Origin: a virus
Lineage: Duplodnaviria; Heunggongvirae; Uroviricota; Caudoviricetes
Length of the DNA stretch: 7,627 nucleotides
IMG/VR virus record: IMGVR_UViG_2695420382_000010
Coordinates: 1-7,627 of that record
Direction: 5' to 3' (one strand)
Both the position numbers and the translations under genes were made by a program. Under the pieces are notes generated by a model that saw only the letters and a list, made by a program, of their open reading frames with translations, was not told the origin of the DNA and did no database searches. Shown here in pieces: positions 551-7,627 of the stretch; the first letter of the stretch is position 1; every line of letters starts with the position of its first letter.

Positions 551-661
551 ATGCCCTCCATAGTAACCATGAAACAATAATACGATATGTACTTTTGGAA
601 TGCAAACAAAAAATACATCTTGTGCATGGATGGTTTTAGTACAGAGCGTAATAATAAGGAT
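551..661. promoter_or_regulatory. OR-type divergent control region between cro and cI (operators, PR and presumably PRM)
   Basis: 110-bp AT-rich spacer between divergent cro and cI starts. It contains the 19-mer at 577-595 that is shared (17/19) with the PL region, and an ACAAGATG core at 614-625 that recurs in OL at 2918-2925. Confidence 0.6.
577..605 (-). promoter_or_regulatory. PR-like sigma70 promoter for cro (-35 TTGCAT, 17-bp spacer, -10 TATTAT)
   Basis: On the minus strand, TTGCAT is the complement of 600-605, the spacer is 17 bp, and TATTAT is the complement of 577-582. The predicted leader of about 20 nt carries GGAGGG before the cro ATG. Confidence 0.5.
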
Positions 662-1321
662 ATGAAAATGAAATGGTATGAACTGGCTAGATCCAGAATG
701 AAAGAGCTCGGCATAACTCAAGAGAAGTTAGCTGAAGAGCTTGGTATGACGCAGGGTGGAATTGGTCACTGGTTGCGCGGATCTCGTCATCCATCTCTTG
801 ACGAGATTGGTGTGGTGTTTAAATACCTTGGTATTGATAACGTCTCATTCAACCACGACGGTACATTCTCACCTGTTGGCGAATACTCATCTGCCCCCGT
901 TAAAAAACAATATGAGTACCCTGTTTTTTCTCATGTTCAGGCCGGGATGTTCTCGCCTGAGCTTAGAACCTTTACCAAAGGTGATGCGGAGAGATGGGTA
1001 AGCACAACCAAAAAAGCCAGTGATTCTGCATTCTGGCTTGAGGTTGAAGGTAATTCCATGACCGCGCCAACAGGATCCAAGCCCAGCTTTCCTGACGGAA
1101 TGTTAATTCTCGTTGACCCTGAGCAGGCTGTTGAGCCAGGTGATTTCTGCATAGCCAGACTTGGGGGTGATGAGTTTACCTTCAAGAAACTGATCAGGGA
1201 TAGCGGTCAGGTGTTTTTACAACCACTAAACCCACAGTACCCAATGATCCCATGCAATGAGAGTTGTTCCGTTGTGGGGAAAGTTATCGCTAGCCAGTGG
1301 CCTGAAGAGACGTTTGGGTGA
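662..1321 (+). CDS. cI: CI-type prophage repressor (N-terminal HTH domain plus C-terminal S24/LexA-like autocleavage-dimerisation domain), 219 aa
   Basis: Track ORF 587..1321, trimmed to Met 662 (MKMKWYEL...; Met 668 is an alternative) with AAGGA at 656-660. The C-terminal ~130 aa ([14 protein letters not shown]...[10 protein letters not shown]...[12 protein letters not shown]) match the lambda CI C-terminal domain as I recall it. The N-terminal domain is different and carries the helix-turn-helix [22 protein letters not shown]. Confidence 0.9.
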
Positions 1322-1452: not shown

Positions 1453-2283
1453 ATGAAACTTAATTTTTACGCCTCCTATCAACAAAACGGTAAGGAACGT
1501 TTTCCTATTGATTTGGTGTCAGGCTTATCCGAACAGGTAATCAAAGCAAAAAACAATGCCTTCGAGATTGATGATTACTTTATATTTGCTCATCACATTA
1601 GCAGAGAATGTTATTTAATAACAAAAACATATGACTCAGACTTGGTTAAAAGGGTCAATAAAACCACGCTCTCAGTCGATGAACTCAAAAACGTATTAGG
1701 CAGTGACGAAACGCTAGCGTTTCCATCATTCCTGTTGATCAAAGATGGCGTCATTGGTTATGCCTGCACTCAGCACGGGCCAAGAGTTCGTGAGCTTGAA
1801 ATTTACTTATCTAATAAATTGAACATAACAAAACCATTCAAGCTATGTTTAGAACCTCTGATGAGAGACGTAACTAGGGATGATGCTCTCGACATGGAGT
1901 TCATCGGTAGAACAACCTTAAGAGTTGAGTCTGGATCCAAGCTTTTGTCTCCTTTGCTGAGAGCTGCCGGGATCGAAACCATCGAAGAAGAGCTTCTTGA
2001 AGGTGTGGAAATAACAATAAAACCAAAAAGAATGAGAAATATCAGCAACATGTCCAAGGAGCTGATTCGTAATGCCGATGATTCTCATAGTGACATACAT
2101 CTTAAAGCGAAGGAGTACGCAGCTGATTTGCTAACTGACTACTACCTTTCAAGCAAGGGGCACATCAGTGCCAACATTTACAAATCGACAAATGAAGAAA
2201 TTGCAGAGGAAATGGAAATTTGCTACATAAGAATGAAAAATGTTATAATGAAAAGTTATAAAGATTTTTGTGAAGACGAGTAA
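1453..2283 (+). CDS. rexA: RexA homologue (abortive-infection/exclusion sensor component), 276 aa
   Basis: Same strand as cI and immediately downstream of it. Its length is close to lambda RexA (279 aa) and it shares blocks recalled from lambda RexA: FPSFL, EPLMR..T.DD, FIGRTT, I.IKPK, YLS.KGH.SA, EIAEEM. Confidence 0.85.
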   Translation: MKLNFYASYQQNGKERFPIDLVSGLSEQVIKAKNNAFEIDDYFIFAHHISRECYLITKTYDSDLVKRVNKTTLSVDELKNVLGSDETLAFPSFLLIKDGVIGYACTQHGPRVRELEIYLSNKLNITKPFKLCLEPLMRDVTRDDALDMEFIGRTTLRVESGSKLLSPLLRAAGIETIEEELLEGVEITIKPKRMRNISNMSKELIRNADDSHSDIHLKAKEYAADLLTDYYLSSKGHISANIYKSTNEEIAEEMEICYIRMKNVIMKSYKDFCEDE

Positions 2284-2313
2284 GAGTGAATACCTAAGGG
2301 TAAGGGAGGGCGT

Positions 2314-2751
2314 ATGAGAGAGCACAAAATCGTTCCCGGCGTATTGCTATTCGCTTTACCAATACTTTTCACTATTGTCGTTTACTGCATTTTCCGTAGC
2401 CTTACCTCAGCAATTTCGTTCACCGAGCACAGAGACGCGCTGGGAGCAGCTATATCTTCATATGCAGGGACCACTATCGCAATACTCATTGCCGCGTTGA
2501 CGTTTGTCATAGGCATCAGAGGAAAAAACATGCAAAAAGTAAAGGCATACGGATATATGACATCTGTCATTATTCTGTATGCACTGACCTTTGCGGAGCT
2601 TGGCATTGTTTTTTTTATGGGGTTATTTTTAATGGCCACAAGCAAGCAACCAATTGCTTTGTTGCCATCCTTATCGATCGGCCTATCAGCTTCATCAATG
2701 ATGCATATAAGCATCATACTTTTCCAACTCCTAAAATTCTCAAATAAATAA
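2314..2751 (+). CDS. rexB: RexB homologue (small polytopic inner-membrane protein partner of RexA), 145 aa
   Basis: GGGAGGG Shine-Dalgarno at 2303-2309. The protein is hydrophobic with about four predicted TM segments and shares blocks recalled from lambda RexB: MPGV, H/EHRD.LGA..SSYAGT.IAILIAALTF, YGYMTSV.I.YAL.F.ELG. It is followed directly by an intrinsic terminator. Confidence 0.85.
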   Translation: MREHKIVPGVLLFALPILFTIVVYCIFRSLTSAISFTEHRDALGAAISSYAGTTIAILIAALTFVIGIRGKNMQKVKAYGYMTSVIILYALTFAELGIVFFMGLFLMATSKQPIALLPSLSIGLSASSMMHISIILFQLLKFSNK

Positions 2752-2753
2752 CG

Positions 2754-2780
2754 ACCCGGCCTCAGCGCCGGGTTTTCTTT
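2754..2780 (+). terminator. tIMM-like Rho-independent terminator ending the cI-rexA-rexB operon
   Basis: GC-rich hairpin ACCCGGC (2754-2760), loop CTCAGC, GCCGGGT (2767-2773), followed by the T-tract TTTTCTTT, starting 3 nt after the rexB stop. Confidence 0.8.
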
Positions 2781-2960
2781 GCCTCTCGAACGCCCACCTA
2801 AAACACATAACAAATTGTATTTATTGAAAAATTGATAGATACAACTTGCTAAACAGTGCAATTCTGATCCCTCACCTACCAAACAATGCACCCCTGCAAA
2901 AAATAAATCCATAAAATACAAGATGGTATAAAAAACCAACAACATTTAGAACATTTTGTA

Positions 2961-2989
2961 TTGACTCAATAAAGTACACATCGTACTAT
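2961..2989 (+). promoter_or_regulatory. PL-like sigma70 promoter (-35 TTGACT, 17-bp spacer, -10 TACTAT) with an overlapping operator
   Basis: TTGACT at 2961-2966 and TACTAT at 2984-2989. The downstream CATCAGCAGGACGCA resembles the lambda PL transcript start. The segment 2971-2989 is 17/19 identical to the PR spacer and -10 segment, suggesting OL1. Confidence 0.55.
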
Positions 2990-3035
2990 TTAGCCATCAG
3001 CAGGACGCAGGAAGCCAAACGGAACAGATTGGCAG

Positions 3036-3069
3036 GCTCTTTAACTTCGATGGGGCGCTGACAAAGCGC
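3036..3069 (+). promoter_or_regulatory. nutL: boxA plus P22-type boxB hairpin
   Basis: boxA GCTCTTTAA at 3036-3044 and boxB GCGC-TGACAAA-GCGC at 3055-3069, lying between PL and the N start. The boxB matches the P22 nutL type as I recall it. Confidence 0.7.
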
Positions 3070-3188
3070 AAACAGATATCAAACGAGATGGGTTTGGCGG
3101 TGATGTGAATTGCAGCTGCAACGACAGCAACCAGAAGATCAGCACCTGGCGCATCACCACCAAAGCCATTTCACATGAGGAAAACATC

Positions 3189-3497
3189 ATGACGGTAATC
3201 GTGTACGGAAAATCAACATTTGCAGGAAATGCCAAAACTCGCCGTCATGAGCGGCGCAGAAAGCTGGCTATCGAGCGTGATGCCATCTGCAACATCATCG
3301 ATTCGATCTTCGGCACAGACAGCGAGGAACCTGTTCAGAAAGACACGAGAAAGCGTTTAAGCCTTTCTGAAAAAGCAATATCACTCGGAAGCCTTCGCTG
3401 CAAGAAGGCAGATGAATACAGTGGAAGTATTTGCCTGCCAAACATAGCCATTTACGCGGCAGGCTACAGGAAATCCAAACAGCTGACAGCAAGATGA
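3189..3497 (+). CDS. N: N-type transcription antiterminator, P22 gene 24-like, 102 aa (arginine-rich motif near the N terminus)
   Basis: Track ORF 3105..3497, trimmed to Met 3189 with GAGGA at 3176-3180. The start MTVIVYGKSTFAGNAKTRRHERRRKLAIERD contains the arginine-rich boxB-binding motif and matches the P22 gp24 N terminus as I recall it. It is the first gene after PL and nutL. Confidence 0.85.
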   Translation: MTVIVYGKSTFAGNAKTRRHERRRKLAIERDAICNIIDSIFGTDSEEPVQKDTRKRLSLSEKAISLGSLRCKKADEYSGSICLPNIAIYAAGYRKSKQLTAR

Positions 3498-3555
3498 CTT
3501 GTGTTGGTCGCCAGAAAATGAAATTAGACAGCAAACCACTTATTTGAGGTGAGAT

Positions 3556-4026
3556 ATGACAAAATCATGGAGCGTACCGTTTCCTGAATCAGAAACTGAA
3601 CATGATGGAATGCCTGTTTTCTGGAGATTCCAGGCGACAGTTGAAGAAGATGGGATAAAAATATTCGCACTTCAATATATAGCTTTTCATCAGACAGAGC
3701 ATTATGCATGGTTGGTTCCTGCGCATTGGATTGTTAATTTTAAACCAGCACCAAATCAGTGGTTACAGGAATGGAAACAAAGGAGAAATAGATATGCAAT
3801 TAAGAAAGTAGCAAAAAATGCAGAAAGATCTTTTGCATTCCCAACGAAGAAACTTGCTATTGAAAGTTTATTGCGTCGAAAAAAATACCATTTGGTGAGG
3901 ATCAAACAAGATTTGGCTGTCGTATCAACTCTTGTCGATGGGATGAAGAATATTGATACATCAACACCAGATATTGAATATAACTTTGGACACAACCAAG
4001 AAACAGAAAATTGGGTATTTTATTAG
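3556..4026 (+). CDS. Hypothetical protein, 156 aa; AT-rich orphan gene in the N-cIII slot
   Basis: Track ORF with GAGGTGA Shine-Dalgarno at about 3546-3552. GC content is about 30-37% against about 50-55% in cI and cIII. It has an aromatic-rich N-terminal half and a basic then acidic C-terminal half. I recognise no family. Confidence 0.7.
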   Translation: MTKSWSVPFPESETEHDGMPVFWRFQATVEEDGIKIFALQYIAFHQTEHYAWLVPAHWIVNFKPAPNQWLQEWKQRRNRYAIKKVAKNAERSFAFPTKKLAIESLLRRKKYHLVRIKQDLAVVSTLVDGMKNIDTSTPDIEYNFGHNQETENWVFY

Positions 4027-4101
4027 TACAAATAAGCACTGTGTATCCATTCCAACGAGTGAATACACGGAGCAATTTAAAGCGTAAATAAGGAGCACAC
4101 C

Positions 4102-4266
4102 ATGCAATATGCCATTGCAGGGTGGCCTGTTGCTGGCTGCCCTTCCGAATCTTTACTTGAACGAATCACCCGTAAATTACGTGACGGATGGAAACGCCTT
4201 ATCGACATACTTAATCAGCCAGGAGTCCCAAAGAATGGATCAAACACTTATGGCTATTCAGACTAA
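4102..4266 (+). CDS. cIII: CIII (inhibitor of FtsH-mediated CII degradation), 54 aa
   Basis: Not in the track because it is under 60 aa. ATG at 4102 with AGGAG at 4091-4095. It translates to MQYAIAGWPVAGCPSESLLERITRKLRDGWKRLIDILNQPGVPKNGSNTYGYSD, which matches lambda CIII as I recall it. Confidence 0.8.
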   Translation: MQYAIAGWPVAGCPSESLLERITRKLRDGWKRLIDILNQPGVPKNGSNTYGYSD

Positions 4267-4348
4267 ATTCACTATCGCCACTTTTATTGGCGATGAAAAG
4301 ATGTTTCGTGAGGCCGTCGAAGCCTACAGAAAATGGAGGTCAAAATGA
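4235..4348 (+). CDS. kil: Kil-like small protein (host cell-division inhibitor family), 37 aa
   Basis: This is the C-terminal part of track ORF 4109..4348, with Met at 4235 (MDQTLMAIQTKFTIATFIGDEKMFREAVEAYRKWRSK) preceded by AGGAG at 4221-4225. It overlaps the cIII 3' end out of frame. The N terminus matches lambda Kil as I recall it. Confidence 0.6.
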   Translation: MDQTLMAIQTKFTIATFIGDEKMFREAVEAYRKWRSK

Positions 4349-4533
4349 TTCCGGTAGAGCTGGCGAAAACTCCAGAGTTAAGTCGATTAAAAAGAGAATA
4401 TCACATTGCTGAGGCTCGTTACTGGCGTAAAGCGGGAGATAAATCAAAGAAACAACTTTGTTTATGGCAGGCACAAAGAGAGCGCATGAATGAGCGCGAG
4501 TTTCTTTCCGTCCCATCCGAATTACCATTCTGA
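4345..4533 (+). CDS. Hypothetical small basic protein, 62 aa
   Basis: Track ORF 4333..4533, trimmed to Met 4345 with GGAGG at 4335-4339. Its ATG overlaps the kil stop (ATGA), which suggests translational coupling. The protein is Arg/Lys-rich: MIPVELAKTPELSRLKREYHIAEARYWRK... Confidence 0.5.
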   Translation: MIPVELAKTPELSRLKREYHIAEARYWRKAGDKSKKQLCLWQAQRERMNEREFLSVPSELPF

Positions 4534-4541
4534 GGCAAATT

Positions 4542-5198
4542 ATGGGAACTGCGACATTAATACTCGGTGAATCTGGTACCGGAAAATCAACCAGTTTAAG
4601 AAACTTACCACCAGAAAAAACATTAATCATACAGTGCATAAACAAACCGCTACCATTCCCATCAAGTGATTGGGTTAAAATAAGCAAGGAAAACAATAAC
4701 GGGAACATATACAGAACAGATAATACTGAAAATATTGTAAGGGCACTAATTAATGCTCCGCATGAAATTGTAGTTATTGATGATTATCAGGCTGTGATGG
4801 TTAACGAACTAATGGGTAAATGCAATGAGAGAGGATATGACAAATTTACCTCGATAGGGAAAAACGCATGGGATGTGTTCAGGGCTGCTGGTGAAGGGGC
4901 AGACACTCGGAGAGTTTATATTCTGGCACACACGCAAACTGATGATTTTGGCTATACACGAATGAAAACCGTCGGAAAACTAGTCGATTCGACACTTGTT
5001 CCTGAAGGTTATTTCACTATCGTGTTAAGAACTCACGTACAGAACGGAAAATACTCATTTTCCACCCAGACAAACGGGAGTGATTGTTGTAAAAGTCCGG
5101 TTGGGATGTTTGATAGTCAGTTTATTGATAATGATTTGTACGAAGTAGATAAAAAAATATGCTCTTACTATGGGTTTGAAAAAAATGAGACGTCTTGA
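4542..5198 (+). CDS. P-loop NTPase, RecA-core-like; putative Sak4-type phage recombination ATPase, 218 aa
   Basis: Walker A GESGTGKST at residues 9-17 and a Walker B-like IVVIDD near residue 77. The size and position, where lambdoid phages carry their recombination module, fit Sak4-family single-strand-annealing ATPases. The family assignment is inferred, not confirmed. Confidence 0.7.
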   Translation: MGTATLILGESGTGKSTSLRNLPPEKTLIIQCINKPLPFPSSDWVKISKENNNGNIYRTDNTENIVRALINAPHEIVVIDDYQAVMVNELMGKCNERGYDKFTSIGKNAWDVFRAAGEGADTRRVYILAHTQTDDFGYTRMKTVGKLVDSTLVPEGYFTIVLRTHVQNGKYSFSTQTNGSDCCKSPVGMFDSQFIDNDLYEVDKKICSYYGFEKNETS

Positions 5199-5790
5199 GG
5201 TATCCGGCGAGAGATTTGGCAATTTAGTTGTTATTGGTGATGCAGGAATGCGTGGTACTCAAAGGTTGGTAAACTGTGTGTGTGACTGCGGAGTAGTTTG
5301 TGTTAAACAGCTTGGCAACCTCCGTTCAGGGCACACAAGAAGTTGTGGTTGCTCACGCTCATCTACAACAAAAGCAAGAAAAAACAAACATGGCATGTAT
5401 GGAACGCCAACATACAAGTCATGGTCTTCAATGTTAACAAGATGCTTCAATGAAAGAAATAGTAAATACAAACACTATGGAGGAAGAGGAATAACTGTTT
5501 GTGAACGGTGGCTGGACTTTAAATTATTTTTCGCTGATATGGGAAAAAGACCAGACGGAACTACATTGGGAAGAATTGATAACAATGGTAATTACGAACC
5601 ATCAAATTGCGAATGGCAGAAAAGTATCGAGCAAGCAAGAAATAAGAGTAATACCGTATTATTTAAATTCAATGGAGTGCTGGCAACAATTTCAGAGCAC
5701 TGCGAAAAAACTGGATTAAACCCAAGCACGGTAAGAAGCAGGATTTACACATATCATTGGTCTGTAGACAAGGCCTTATCAAAAGGATAA
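5185..5790 (+). CDS. Cys-rich putative nucleic-acid-binding / homing-endonuclease-like protein, about 201 aa (start ambiguous: 5170 or 5185)
   Basis: Track ORF 5170..5790. It overlaps the end of the upstream ATPase gene. It has an N-terminal Cys cluster (NCVCDCG...SGHTRSCGC), a central YKSW..M..RC.N....Y..YGGRGI.VCERW block and a GRIDNNGNYEPSNCEW block, which I recall from free-standing phage endonuclease-like genes, and a C-terminal HTH-like segment. Confidence 0.65.
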   Translation: MRRLEVSGERFGNLVVIGDAGMRGTQRLVNCVCDCGVVCVKQLGNLRSGHTRSCGCSRSSTTKARKNKHGMYGTPTYKSWSSMLTRCFNERNSKYKHYGGRGITVCERWLDFKLFFADMGKRPDGTTLGRIDNNGNYEPSNCEWQKSIEQARNKSNTVLFKFNGVLATISEHCEKTGLNPSTVRSRIYTYHWSVDKALSKG

Positions 5791-5794
5791 AAGC

Positions 5795-6382
5795 ATGAGC
5801 AACGTGATTTTTACTTATAACGAAGAAGCAGCACTGACCGCAGGGCAAGGTGGTTTTATTAACGAAACTGGCGCTCATATCATTACCATTACTGAAGCAG
5901 AACTAAAGCAATCAGAGAAAGGAGCCAAATTTATTGAGTTTTCTGGAGAATCCGACGACGGACGTAAAATCCAATATCTTAGCGTTTGTGTTCAGAAAAA
6001 TGACGGAACGGAAAACAAGTTTGGTGCAAACGTCGTTCATGCCATGATGGGGTGTGTTGGGATTAAGCAGTTAACGCAACATATGGTTTCCGCCAGTAAA
6101 TTTGTTGCTCCTGAATTTCATGGAAAGAAAATCGGGTTAGTGCTCCAGAAAGTATTAACCACAAACAAAAAGACTGGCGCAGACAGCTACCAGATGGAAA
6201 TACGCATCCCGTTTATTGCACAAACAGGTCAAACCCTTAAAGAAAAGTCGGAAGGCAAGCAACCAGAAACTATCGCCAACATGGTTGCCAGCCTCAAAGA
6301 TAAAGACAATCGCTCTAAAAACGTAAGCCAGAATCATGCAGATGATTATGGTTACAGCCAGAACGATTACCCTCCTTTCTGA
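5795..6382 (+). CDS. Hypothetical protein with an SSB-like acidic/aromatic C-terminal tail (candidate ssDNA-binding partner of the ATPase), 195 aa
   Basis: AAGGA Shine-Dalgarno about 9 nt upstream. The C terminus ...DDYGYSQNDYPPF resembles the SSB / gp2.5 tail (D-rich, ending in P-F). The body has no recognisable canonical SSB OB-fold signature, so the function is a hypothesis. Confidence 0.6.
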   Translation: MSNVIFTYNEEAALTAGQGGFINETGAHIITITEAELKQSEKGAKFIEFSGESDDGRKIQYLSVCVQKNDGTENKFGANVVHAMMGCVGIKQLTQHMVSASKFVAPEFHGKKIGLVLQKVLTTNKKTGADSYQMEIRIPFIAQTGQTLKEKSEGKQPETIANMVASLKDKDNRSKNVSQNHADDYGYSQNDYPPF

Positions 6383-6405
6383 TTACTGAAAATAAGGCTC
6401 CCATT

Positions 6406-6702
6406 ATGCCAGCGCCTCTGTATGGTGCGGATGACCCGCGCAACTGCTCCGGTAGCTCCAAGGCGGAGGTGCTGGATAAATTCAGGAAAAACTACGACCG
6501 GATAATGTCGCTACCGCAGGAAACGAAAGAGGAAAAGGAATTTCGCCATTGTATATGGCTTGCAGAGAAAGAAGAACGCGAGCGAATTTACCAGACATCA
6601 ATCCGACCATTCCGCAAAGCCACATATACCCACTTCCCTGAATATATCGACCCGCGCCTGCGTAATTACCGCTCACGCTATGGCGCTATCAGTAATGACT
6701 GA
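6406..6702 (+). CDS. Hypothetical protein, 98 aa
   Basis: Track ORF with AAGG about 9 nt upstream, co-directional with the operon. The protein is charged and Arg-rich. Its size and position are compatible with a P22 Abc-type anti-RecBCD protein, but the sequence is not recognised. Confidence 0.55.
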   Translation: MPAPLYGADDPRNCSGSSKAEVLDKFRKNYDRIMSLPQETKEEKEFRHCIWLAEKEERERIYQTSIRPFRKATYTHFPEYIDPRLRNYRSRYGAISND

Positions 6703-6712
6703 GGAATTAACA

Positions 6713-7003
6713 ATGAAAACAATGAAGCTAAACATCGACCTCGGCAAATACGTTATTACCGGAACCAAACACGACCTGATTCTTAGCGAAAGAGGAATTA
6801 TCAAAGAAGGTGAGAATGCAGGGAAAGAAACACTAAGTCGTATCGGTTATTACAGCAAGTTTGAGCATCTGGTTAAAGAGTTATGCAACCGTGAAATCCT
6901 GTTATCTCAGGCGCAGACGCTACAGGATATTCAGCAGCATATCGAAACTTTAGGTGTGTCACTTAGCATGGCCGTTGACCAGTTCGTTGAGAGTAAATCA
7001 TGA
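6713..7003 (+). CDS. Hypothetical protein, 96 aa
   Basis: Trimmed from track ORF 6560..7003 to Met 6713, with GAGGA at 6701-6705 straight after the upstream stop. Sequence [22 protein letters not shown]... Confidence 0.55.
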
Positions 7004-7167
7004 GAGGACTTGCATACAATCCCGGCATTCTTCCGGCAGAAATGATTATTCGCCAGCGCGTAAAGCCAATGCCATCGAGAGAGGAATTGCTTAAGAGAAA
7101 GAGTTTCGGTTCTGTTAATGACAACAAATATCTGAATGCGATGTGGCGCAAAGGAGGCAACCAGTGA
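7000..7167 (+). CDS. Hypothetical small protein, 55 aa
   Basis: Not in the track because it is under 60 aa. Its ATG overlaps the upstream stop (ATGA) and its stop overlaps the downstream GTG start (GTGA). It translates to [55 protein letters not shown]. Support is positional only. Confidence 0.35.
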
Positions 7168-7627
7168 GCAAGATTGACTATCAGGCACTGCGTGCCAAGG
7201 CAGAAAAAGCAACTAAAGGAAGCTACATCGTAGGGCATACATCTGTTAATCGGCACGGCAATTTAACAGGAGTTTTTGTTTGTCAAAAATGGAAAGGAGA
7301 ACCCGGTGGTGTGATTGCGGAATGTCATGTTAACTGCCTGGTTGAAACAGATGTTCAGGCTTATGCAAACGCTGAATTTATTGCTGCTTTTAATCCAAAT
7401 GTTGCGCTGGCACTACTGGATGAACGGGAAAGAAACCTGCAATACATCAAAAGCCGCGATCAGGAGAACGAGGAAATTGCGCTAACGGTAGGGAAGTTGC
7501 GTGTTGAGCTGGAAGCAGCAGAGAACAACCTTATTGATAGTGAATGCCATGTTGCTGAACTGGAAGAAGCGCTACGCGATAAGCAGGCGTTACTTGAAGC
7601 CTCAGAAAAGCGCATAGCAGAACTGGA
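7164..7627 (+). CDS. Coiled-coil protein, possibly Ea22-like, 3' partial (GTG start; open to the end of the window)
   Basis: Strong AAGGAGG Shine-Dalgarno at 7151-7157, 6 nt before GTG 7164. The frame stays open for 154 codons to the window end. The C-terminal part visible is heptad-like and rich in Glu/Leu/Ala (...[43 protein letters not shown]). The N terminus [19 protein letters not shown] resembles Ea22-like prophage proteins as I recall them. Confidence 0.5.

Follow-up and report, generated by a model that had tools for sequence, protein, structure and literature searches.

A predicted abc2 gene followed by two small coupled genes of the DUF5405 and DUF2737 families at the end of a lambdoid Rec module

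Which of the small genes that follow the recombination genes of a lambdoid phage act on the host enzyme RecBCD, and what are the others? We considered this question for a stretch of 7,627 nucleotides (nt) from a tailed phage (positions 1 to 7,627 of IMG/VR record IMGVR_UViG_2695420382_000010; hereafter, the window), where three successive open reading frames (ORF1, ORF2, and ORF3) follow the genes of a recombination (Rec) module. A reading made from the sequence alone had proposed, based on position and size, that they were candidate anti-RecBCD or anti-defence genes. As to anti-RecBCD genes, the proposal, made without recognition of the sequences, proved right for ORF1, which was identified as a predicted Abc2 by several family matches, and failed for the other two ORFs, which belong to two different protein families. 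The features on which the argument rests are as follows.

6406–6702, plus strand: ORF1, Abc2 (anti-RecBCD protein 2; PF11043, phrog_656, PDB 8B1T/8B1U, P22 Abc2)
6701–6705, plus strand: Shine-Dalgarno sequence GAGGA, overlapping the abc2 stop codon 7 nt before the ATG of ORF2 (from the sequence)
6713–7003, plus strand: ORF2, protein of the DUF5405/phage P2 Orf83 family, an optional cassette between abc2 and the DUF2737 gene
7000–7167, plus strand: ORF3, DUF2737 protein of 55 amino acids, homologue of P22 orf56 and HK620 HkaI (PF10930, phrog_1117)
7147–7190, plus strand: mosaic junction comprising the final six codons of ORF3 (RKGGNQ) with its stop codon, GGAGG, and the GTG of the Ead/Ea22 gene

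The explanation that we consider highly probable is that Abc2 closes an HK620-type Rec module and that two conserved, coupled accessory genes follow it. On this account, the stretch spans the promoter-distal part of the Rec module in a lambdoid early-left (PL) operon and the first accessory 'ea' genes. The family memberships, the order of the genes, their junctions, the purifying selection, and the linkage statistics are direct observations.

ORF1 as an Abc2 protein

ORF1 matched the Pfam family PF11043 (Anti-RecBCD_p2) with 196.4 bits (E 7e-59; curated cut-off 25 bits), and its residues 1–98 were aligned to positions 1–97 of the 97 profile positions. It also matched phrog_656 ('abc2 anti-RecBCD', E 5.6e-56), the Abc2 chain of PDB entries 8B1T and 8B1U (E 7.9e-54), and, over the full length, Abc2 of phage P22 (89% identity, E 5e-65), which is one of the comparisons that the sequence-only reading had asked for. 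The ratio of nonsynonymous to synonymous substitution rates (dN/dS) between ORF1 and P22 abc2 was 0.15. A proline corresponding to Pro68 was present in ORF1 and was invariant across 130 distinct Abc2 sequences from related loci. In P22 Abc2, the P68A substitution abolished co-purification with the host protein PpiB, an isomerase in whose active site Pro68 is located in the structure (PMC9836394).

The genomic surroundings of ORF1 were also those of an abc2 gene: it lies in a Rec module of the PL operon that contains an annealing protein and no phage exonuclease. Neither an Exo nor a YqaJ homologue was found in the window among the Pfam and PHROG matches, and an exonuclease of their own is typically missing in phages with Abc2 (PMC9836394). 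On this evidence, we take ORF1 to be an Abc2 of the P22 type, that is, a predicted hijacker of RecBCD that would, at this level of identity, bind RecC.

Abc2 leaves the helicase activity of RecBCD largely intact while the response to Chi is lost, and it has been proposed to recruit RecBCD as a resection nuclease for the phage annealing protein; when abc2 was cloned by itself, RecC was bound and the activity of RecBCD was altered (PMC9836394). If it acts like its P22 homologue, the ORF1 product would bind the Chi-recognition domains of host RecC and engage PpiB via Pro68. Since RecBCD would thereby be blind to Chi, it would resect DNA ends for the phage recombinase rather than destroy phage DNA. 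The recombinase served here would be Sak4 with its cognate single-stranded DNA-binding protein (SSB), in a module that has no exonuclease of its own. The sequence-only reading had expected that a phage with a Sak4-type system would plausibly have to modulate RecBCD, and the Sak4-SSB-Abc2 module known from the literature is in line with this. For this particular allele, we infer both the binding of RecC and the hand-off to Sak4.

Junctions, selection, and linkage of the three genes

The ORF list and the sequence confirmed three small plus-strand ORFs of 98 (6406–6702), 96 (6713–7003), and 55 (7000–7167) amino acids, with the junctions that had been described for them. A TTG-initiated ORF was also listed at 6560–7003; its ATG-started inner part is ORF2. 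The stop codon of ORF1 (TGA, 6700–6702) and the start codon of ORF2 (ATG, 6713–6715) are separated by a 10-nt spacer. The end of ORF2 and the start of ORF3 share the sequence ATGA at 7000–7003. Towards the end of ORF3, GGAGG (7153–7157) precedes GTGA (7164–7167), whose GTG is the start of the Ead/Ea22-like gene. Most ORF2 homologues begin with 'MKL', which is equivalent to the second ATG at 6722. The true start of ORF2 could thus be at 6722 (93 amino acids), but the Shine-Dalgarno spacing favours 6713 (96 amino acids).

No terminator-like sites were found on the plus strand in 6200–7627, including the junctions between the three genes. There was also no plus-strand promoter between these genes, the sole promoter-like site being a weak one at 7263–7290, 3' of ORF3. 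A single polycistronic transcript fits these observations. ORF2 and ORF3 are co-transcribed and translationally coupled genes under selection.

Could ORF2, ORF3, or both be spurious, in what is really non-coding DNA separating abc2 from the ea genes? Both are short, and the structural model of ORF3 had low confidence (predicted local distance difference test score (pLDDT) 63). However, purifying selection was evident for all three ORFs, with dN/dS values of 0.15–0.20 against diverged homologues: the value was 0.20 for ORF2 against a Salmonella homologue and 0.20 for ORF3 against P22 orf56 (dS 1.3), and dS exceeded 1 in the comparisons that speak against spurious ORFs. Strong Pfam and PHROG matches, homologues in the hundreds, a confident fold for ORF2, and conserved start-stop overlaps also argue against this possibility, which we regard as practically negligible and which sequence evolution already refutes. 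Because the family matches are strong, dN/dS is low, and the junction spacings recur in related loci (the 10-nt spacer from abc2 to DUF2737 in 59 of 71, and the arrangement with inserted ORF2 in 11 of 71), the ORFs are not products of chance.

Linkage was assessed in samples that consisted of the nearest relatives of each query, many of them near-identical prophages. When the 80 IMG/VR loci most similar to ORF3 were inspected, abc2 was located directly upstream in 71; the two genes were separated by a 10-nt spacer in 59 of these and by one DUF5405 gene in 12. In a sample centred on Abc2 (158 viral loci with enough flank), abc2 was followed directly by DUF2737 in 132 loci and by DUF5405 and then DUF2737 in 22 (154 together). 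The remaining loci had DUF5405 followed by another gene (three loci) or neither family (one locus). The linkage of abc2 and DUF2737 held behind Erf, Erf with Abc1, or Sak4 with SSB, and adjacency was kept while the allele types of Abc2 and DUF2737 were reshuffled.

All of the 80 loci most similar to ORF2 had it exactly in the interval from abc2 to DUF2737. In P22, orf56 lies 3' of abc2 after a 10-nt spacer, and an alignment of the junctions of HK620, P22, and HK446 showed that the ORF1-distal spacer with GAGGA in the window is the spacer of the DUF2737 gene in phages that have no ORF2. The alignment also showed that ORF2 is inserted precisely where the ATG of DUF2737 lies. The ORF2 cassette takes over the abc2-distal ribosome-binding site and spacer and supplies the ATGA overlap itself.

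A different Rec module was observed before DUF2737 or DUF5405 in several loci (L025, L029, L047, and six similar loci, at about 1970–3990, and L167, at 3033–4981). In this module, a 103-amino-acid protein is followed by RecT, by a protein resembling Sipho_Gp157, and by one of about 100 amino acids. In L167, a Klebsiella locus, the gene in the first position of the RecT-Gp157 module matched the Pfam family GamL. By eye, the protein of about 100 amino acids and P22 Abc1 look like small helix-turn-helix proteins of the Myb/SANT or sigma70 region 4 kind; the sole other basis for this likeness is a weak match of a protein in the Abc1 position to Pfam Sigma70_r4_2.

Identity and possible roles of ORF2 and ORF3

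ORF2 matched DUF5405 (PF17399) with 25.4 bits, over the curated cut-off of 21.6, and phrog_154 with E 1.6e-32. It was 33–40% identical to Orf83 homologues of P2-like phages in tblastn searches, and the Sf6 record itself describes the ORF2 homologue as 'similar to phage P2 gene Orf83'. A profile search yielded 953 clusters (50% identity) at E <= 1e-3, nearly all of them stand-alone proteins of the same size. An AlphaFold2 model built with 27 homologues (pLDDT 89.9) had four beta-strands followed by a helical hairpin of two helices. When this model was compared to BFVD using Foldseek, the matches were solely uncharacterised phage proteins of about 85–105 amino acids, with phages of Salmonella, Morganella, Providencia, Bacillus, Lactobacillus, and Cellulophaga among them; DUF5405 models matched the fold at TM-scores of 0.76–0.83. 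No solved-structure relative of ORF2 was found by sequence, and the model matched no solved structure. The invariant residues of ORF2 (I, G, Y, V, T, L, E, G, Y, E, L, and I) do not look catalytic, and ORF3 has no catalytic-looking invariant residues either.

DUF5405 proteins also occur in P2-like and N4-like phages. In Klebsiella prophages the gene follows GamL-RecT-Gp157; elsewhere its place in the interval from the Rec module to int varies, and so do its neighbours. One alternative reading, which follows the label of PHROG 154 and the RefSeq re-annotation of HK446 and Sf6, makes ORF2 a replication initiation protein. The label is attached to phrog_154, HK446 gp29, Sf6 gp24, and the phiKT protein H6VU99, and the homologue adjoins replication gene A in P2-like phages. 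However, ORF2 has no initiator fold or domain, and its lambdoid location is an accessory region of the PL operon with changing neighbours, which makes a role in replication initiation very improbable. The name was seen to have spread to DUF5405 proteins via PHROG-based re-annotation in NC_019714 (HK446 gp29) and NC_005344 (Sf6 gp24); as a RefSeq label for DUF5405, it looks unfounded and is probably wrong.

ORF3 matched PF10930 with 101.8 bits (cut-off 25) and phrog_1117 with E 1.4e-37, and was 73% identical to P22 orf56. According to a note in the HK446 record, the ORF3 homologue of that phage is similar to HK97 gp38. The protein is basic (isoelectric point 10.7), and its model of three short helices had a predicted template modelling score of 0.23 in addition to the low pLDDT given above. 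A sequence search yielded no solved-structure relative of ORF3. Comparisons of ORF3 with lambda orf60a, orf63, and orf61 were negative.

We compared both proteins to the known anti-RecBCD proteins. For ORF2, BLASTP against P22 Abc1 gave E 2.9, a profile of 27 sequences gave a probability of 0.07% in hhalign, BLASTP against lambda Gam gave E 1.4 over eight residues, and Pfam Gam and GamL were not matched, so the abc1-like role suggested for it by the sequence-only reading was not borne out. ORF3 had no hit to P22 Abc1 or lambda Gam; the anti-RecBCD role likewise suggested for it falls to what is actually a homologue of P22 orf56, a gene that was never assigned such a role. Position does not identify either of them as Abc1, as both lie 3' of abc2 and the Abc1 slot holds the SSB gene (5795–6382).

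These results bear on the reading in which all three genes act against RecBCD as a set, like abc1 and abc2 of P22, with ORF2 or ORF3 as an Abc1 analogue or as a direct RecBCD ligand that works with Abc2. The proximity of DUF2737 to abc2 in P22 and in 154 of the 158 loci, the survival of this linkage through allele reshuffling, and the translational coupling of the genes are in its favour. In addition, Abc2 could not be purified alone (PMC9836394), and a stabilising partner is conceivable. We nevertheless regard such a set as quite unlikely: ORF2 and ORF3 lack similarity to Abc1, Gam, and Abc2; cloned abc2 by itself already gives RecC binding and alters RecBCD, as noted above; DUF2737 and DUF5405 both occur in phages without Abc2; and most abc2 loci have no ORF2.

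A literature search found no paper that mentions DUF2737 or DUF5405, and nothing functional was found in the literature on orf56 with abc2 or on orf83 with phage P2. The region itself has been studied in phage HK446, where gp27 (Oad2) directly inhibits OLD, a defence nuclease of P2, and gp33, encoded upstream, is the OLD trigger; the authors described the DNA around the recombination locus as an anti-defence hotspot, and their 'Rec locus' construct included neither gp29 nor gp28 (bioRxiv 10.64898/2026.07.10.737580). As Oad2 is encoded next downstream in HK446, an anti-defence role of ORF2 and ORF3 is plausible by analogy.

The DNA of the window at 7147–7190 was identical to the 3' end of HK446 gp27 (positions 6300–6345 of the HK446 locus, L001), whereas DUF2737 alleles with other downstream genes end in RSGKK instead of RKGGNQ. 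This pattern places a mosaic recombination joint inside the 3' end of ORF3. The window has no Oad2, and ORF3 is joined straight to the Ead/Ea22 gene at the shared junction. ORF3 was rejected as an Oad2/EaE-like protein, as the part that it has in common with HK446 gp27 is the terminal RKGGNQ only, which comes from this junction. The gene after ORF3 (Ead-like, 7164) had no similarity to HK446 gp27 and was rejected as an Oad2 homologue.

The mosaic joint is one of the arguments for reading ORF2 and ORF3 as independent anti-defence or host-takeover genes of a mosaic 'ea' region, comparable to Oad2, whose adjacency to abc2 reflects lambdoid gene order only and no mechanistic link to Abc2. The variable placement of DUF5405 and its presence in P2-like and N4-like phages fit this alternative, as do the occurrence of DUF2737 behind four different Rec module types and the mapping of Oad2 and the OLD trigger Gp33 to the same region. 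It is at odds with the tight adjacency of abc2 and DUF2737. Furthermore, no known anti-defence family was matched in searches that did not include a dedicated library of such families, PADLOC (which covers defence systems only) gave nothing, and the HK446 library screen against OLD recovered gp27 only. On balance, we treat independence as a serious contender, somewhat short of an even prospect.

The explanation that we prefer, in which Abc2 closes the Rec module and two accessory genes follow, leaves the roles of these genes to be argued from context. ORF2 and ORF3 would most likely be small binding proteins whose targets, at an early stage of infection, are factors of the host or of its defences. 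A part for ORF3 in the conflict over recombination and RecBCD is possible because its family closes Rec modules of four different types. A joint and rather unlikely extension is that DUF2737 is an unrecognised component of lambdoid Rec modules and DUF5405 a portable early inhibitor of a conserved host factor. DUF2737 would then be a small basic, partly disordered peptide at the interface of RecBCD and recombination, or a shield against sensors of RecBCD tampering (OLD, retrons, and Gabija), and the DUF5405 inhibitor would be used by lambdoid, P2-like, and N4-like phages.

Several observations weigh against the preferred explanation. The Abc2 allele of the window, known from sequence, differs from P22 Abc2 by 10 substitutions and a one-residue insertion. 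In HK620, abc2 gave no stimulation of Sak4 oligonucleotide recombineering (PMC5928155), which leaves a direct hand-off from Abc2 to Sak4 unproven. As the locus samples were made up of nearest relatives, many near-identical, the counts given above are not independent and overstate independence. DUF2737 followed a module of RecT, a Gp157-like protein, and a 104-amino-acid protein, without Abc2, in 9 of the 80 loci; it followed RecT and an exonuclease in a Cronobacter phage; and a distant homologue was present among small early genes of a virulent Serratia phage. The linkage to abc2 may thus be conserved synteny only, and DUF2737 is ruled out as an obligate partner of Abc2 by its presence behind RecT-type modules and in the Serratia phage. 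Finally, scans of the three ORFs with NCBIfam and PADLOC gave no matches, and neither gp28 nor gp29 was recovered in the HK446 OLD screen (bioRxiv 10.64898/2026.07.10.737580).

Overall, the stretch is largely ordinary. ORF1 and the HK620-type Sak4-SSB-Abc2 module are already known structurally, biochemically, and comparatively, and nothing new is added to them here; ORF2 and ORF3 are members of catalogued DUF families. Both families are widespread and are flanked by a RecBCD hijacker on one side and, on the other, by a region in which the anti-defence protein Oad2 was recently found to be encoded, and DUF2737 is near-universal beside abc2 in lambdoid phages of Escherichia coli and Salmonella. 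DUF2737 and DUF5405 are therefore reasonable and cheap candidates for anti-defence or recombination-accessory screens. The residual value of the analysis lies in these two candidates and in the flag on the probably wrong database label of DUF5405.

The window and the known systems

The window represents the immunity and early-left region of an E. coli phage or prophage of the lambdoid group, with the genes in the order cro-like (minus strand), cI, rexA, rexB, N, cIII, kil, a small HkaM-like ORF, Sak4, HNH, SSB, ORF1–3, and Ead/Ea22-like; cI, rexAB, N, cIII, kil, Sak4, and SSB were all on the plus strand. The neighbouring features are as follows.

587–1321, plus strand: cI repressor, followed by RexA and RexB as in lambda
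1453–2283, plus strand: RexA homologue (Pfam E 1e-45; PADLOC RexA)
2314–2751, plus strand: RexB homologue (Pfam E 8e-39; PADLOC RexB)
3105–3497 (probable start near 3186), plus strand: N antiterminator (phrog_271, E 4e-41)
3556–4026: 156-amino-acid ORF between N and cIII (phrog_1636 end to end, E 2e-111)
4102–4266, plus strand: cIII, 5' of Sak4
4235–4348, plus strand: kil, 5' of Sak4
4333–4533: 66-amino-acid ORF, 5' of Sak4 (phrog_1723, labelled 'recombinase')
4542–5198, plus strand: Sak4-like single-stranded DNA annealing protein, the recombinase of the Rec module (phrog_2872, E 3.7e-82)
5170–5790, plus strand: HNH endonuclease between Sak4 and SSB (phrog_374, E 3.4e-64)
5795–6382, plus strand: phage SSB of the HK620 HkaK type (phrog_743, E 2.9e-66; HK620 layout; PMC5928155)
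7164–7627, plus strand: 5' part of an Ead/Ea22-like gene that runs off the window (PF13935, E 1.1e-34)

With the N antiterminator gene upstream, the three ORFs belong to a PL transcript that is antiterminated by N. The N protein contains an arginine-rich motif, GNAKTRRHERRRKLAIER, which presumably resembles the P22 gp24 type. The interval between N and cIII often holds exclusion or accessory genes in lambdoid phages; here, it holds the 156-amino-acid ORF, which had no match in Pfam, NCBIfam, or PADLOC. The 66-amino-acid ORF occupies the slot of HK620 hkaM and of the HK446 OLD trigger gp33, but its sequence is unlike that of HK446 gp33.

Sak4 also had a weak match to Pfam AAA_24 (24.1 bits, under the 27-bit cut-off). 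The HNH gene overlaps the 3' end of Sak4 by 29 nt, and the Sak4-HNH-SSB layout was found in only 1 of the 80 related loci centred on DUF2737, which suggests a recent homing-type insertion of the HNH gene. The window is mosaic as a whole, with each phage record covering at most about half of it, and its exact gene combination was absent from the complete E. coli genomes searched. In that search, the RefSeq names encountered were 'phage anti-RecBCD protein', 'DUF5405 family protein', and 'DUF2737 family protein'.

The three ORFs can be compared to several known systems. The lambda genes orf60a, orf63, and orf61 (DUF1317 and DUF1382) are positional analogues, being three small overlapping ORFs between exo and ea22; there is no sequence similarity of ORF3 to any of the three or of ORF2 to orf60a. 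P2 Orf83 resembles ORF2 as a stand-alone protein of about 90 amino acids. In P2-like phages, however, it is encoded in an early operon beside the TraR/DksA-like Orf82 and gene A, whereas ORF2 lies in a lambdoid PL operon after abc2. P22 Abc1 (94 amino acids) is similar in size and operon region, but its gene is located upstream of abc2, whereas ORF2 and ORF3 are downstream.

P22 Abc2 has the same distal position as ORF1 in the Rec module of the PL operon, and DUF2737 follows in both phages, directly in P22 and after ORF2 here. The proteins are 97 (P22) and 98 (ORF1) amino acids long, the inserted residue being near position 79. Their partners differ: P22 Abc2 works with Erf and Abc1, and ORF1 is accompanied by Sak4 and SSB. 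The interval between the annealing protein and abc2, which is the abc1 slot of P22, is filled by SSB in the window, as in HK620. The HK620 module HkaM-Sak4(HkaL)-SSB(HkaK)-Abc2(HkaJ)-HkaI is the published prototype (Hutinet et al. 2018, PMC5928155), and Sak4-SSB-Abc2 is one of the Rec module types catalogued across 325 lambdoid phages (PMC12315714). The order Sak4, SSB, Abc2, and DUF2737 is common to HK620 and the window, to which the window adds two genes: the HNH gene, which separates Sak4 from SSB, and ORF2, which separates abc2 from the homologue of HkaI.

The closest counterparts of the three-gene stretch were HK446 gp30-gp29-gp28 and Sf6 genes 25-24-23, which have the same abc2-DUF5405-DUF2737 order and the same junctions at about 94–96% DNA identity. 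Both phages carry Erf-type recombinases upstream, unlike the Sak4 of the window, and in HK446 it is Oad2 (gp27) that follows DUF2737, where the window continues with the Ead/Ea22-like gene.

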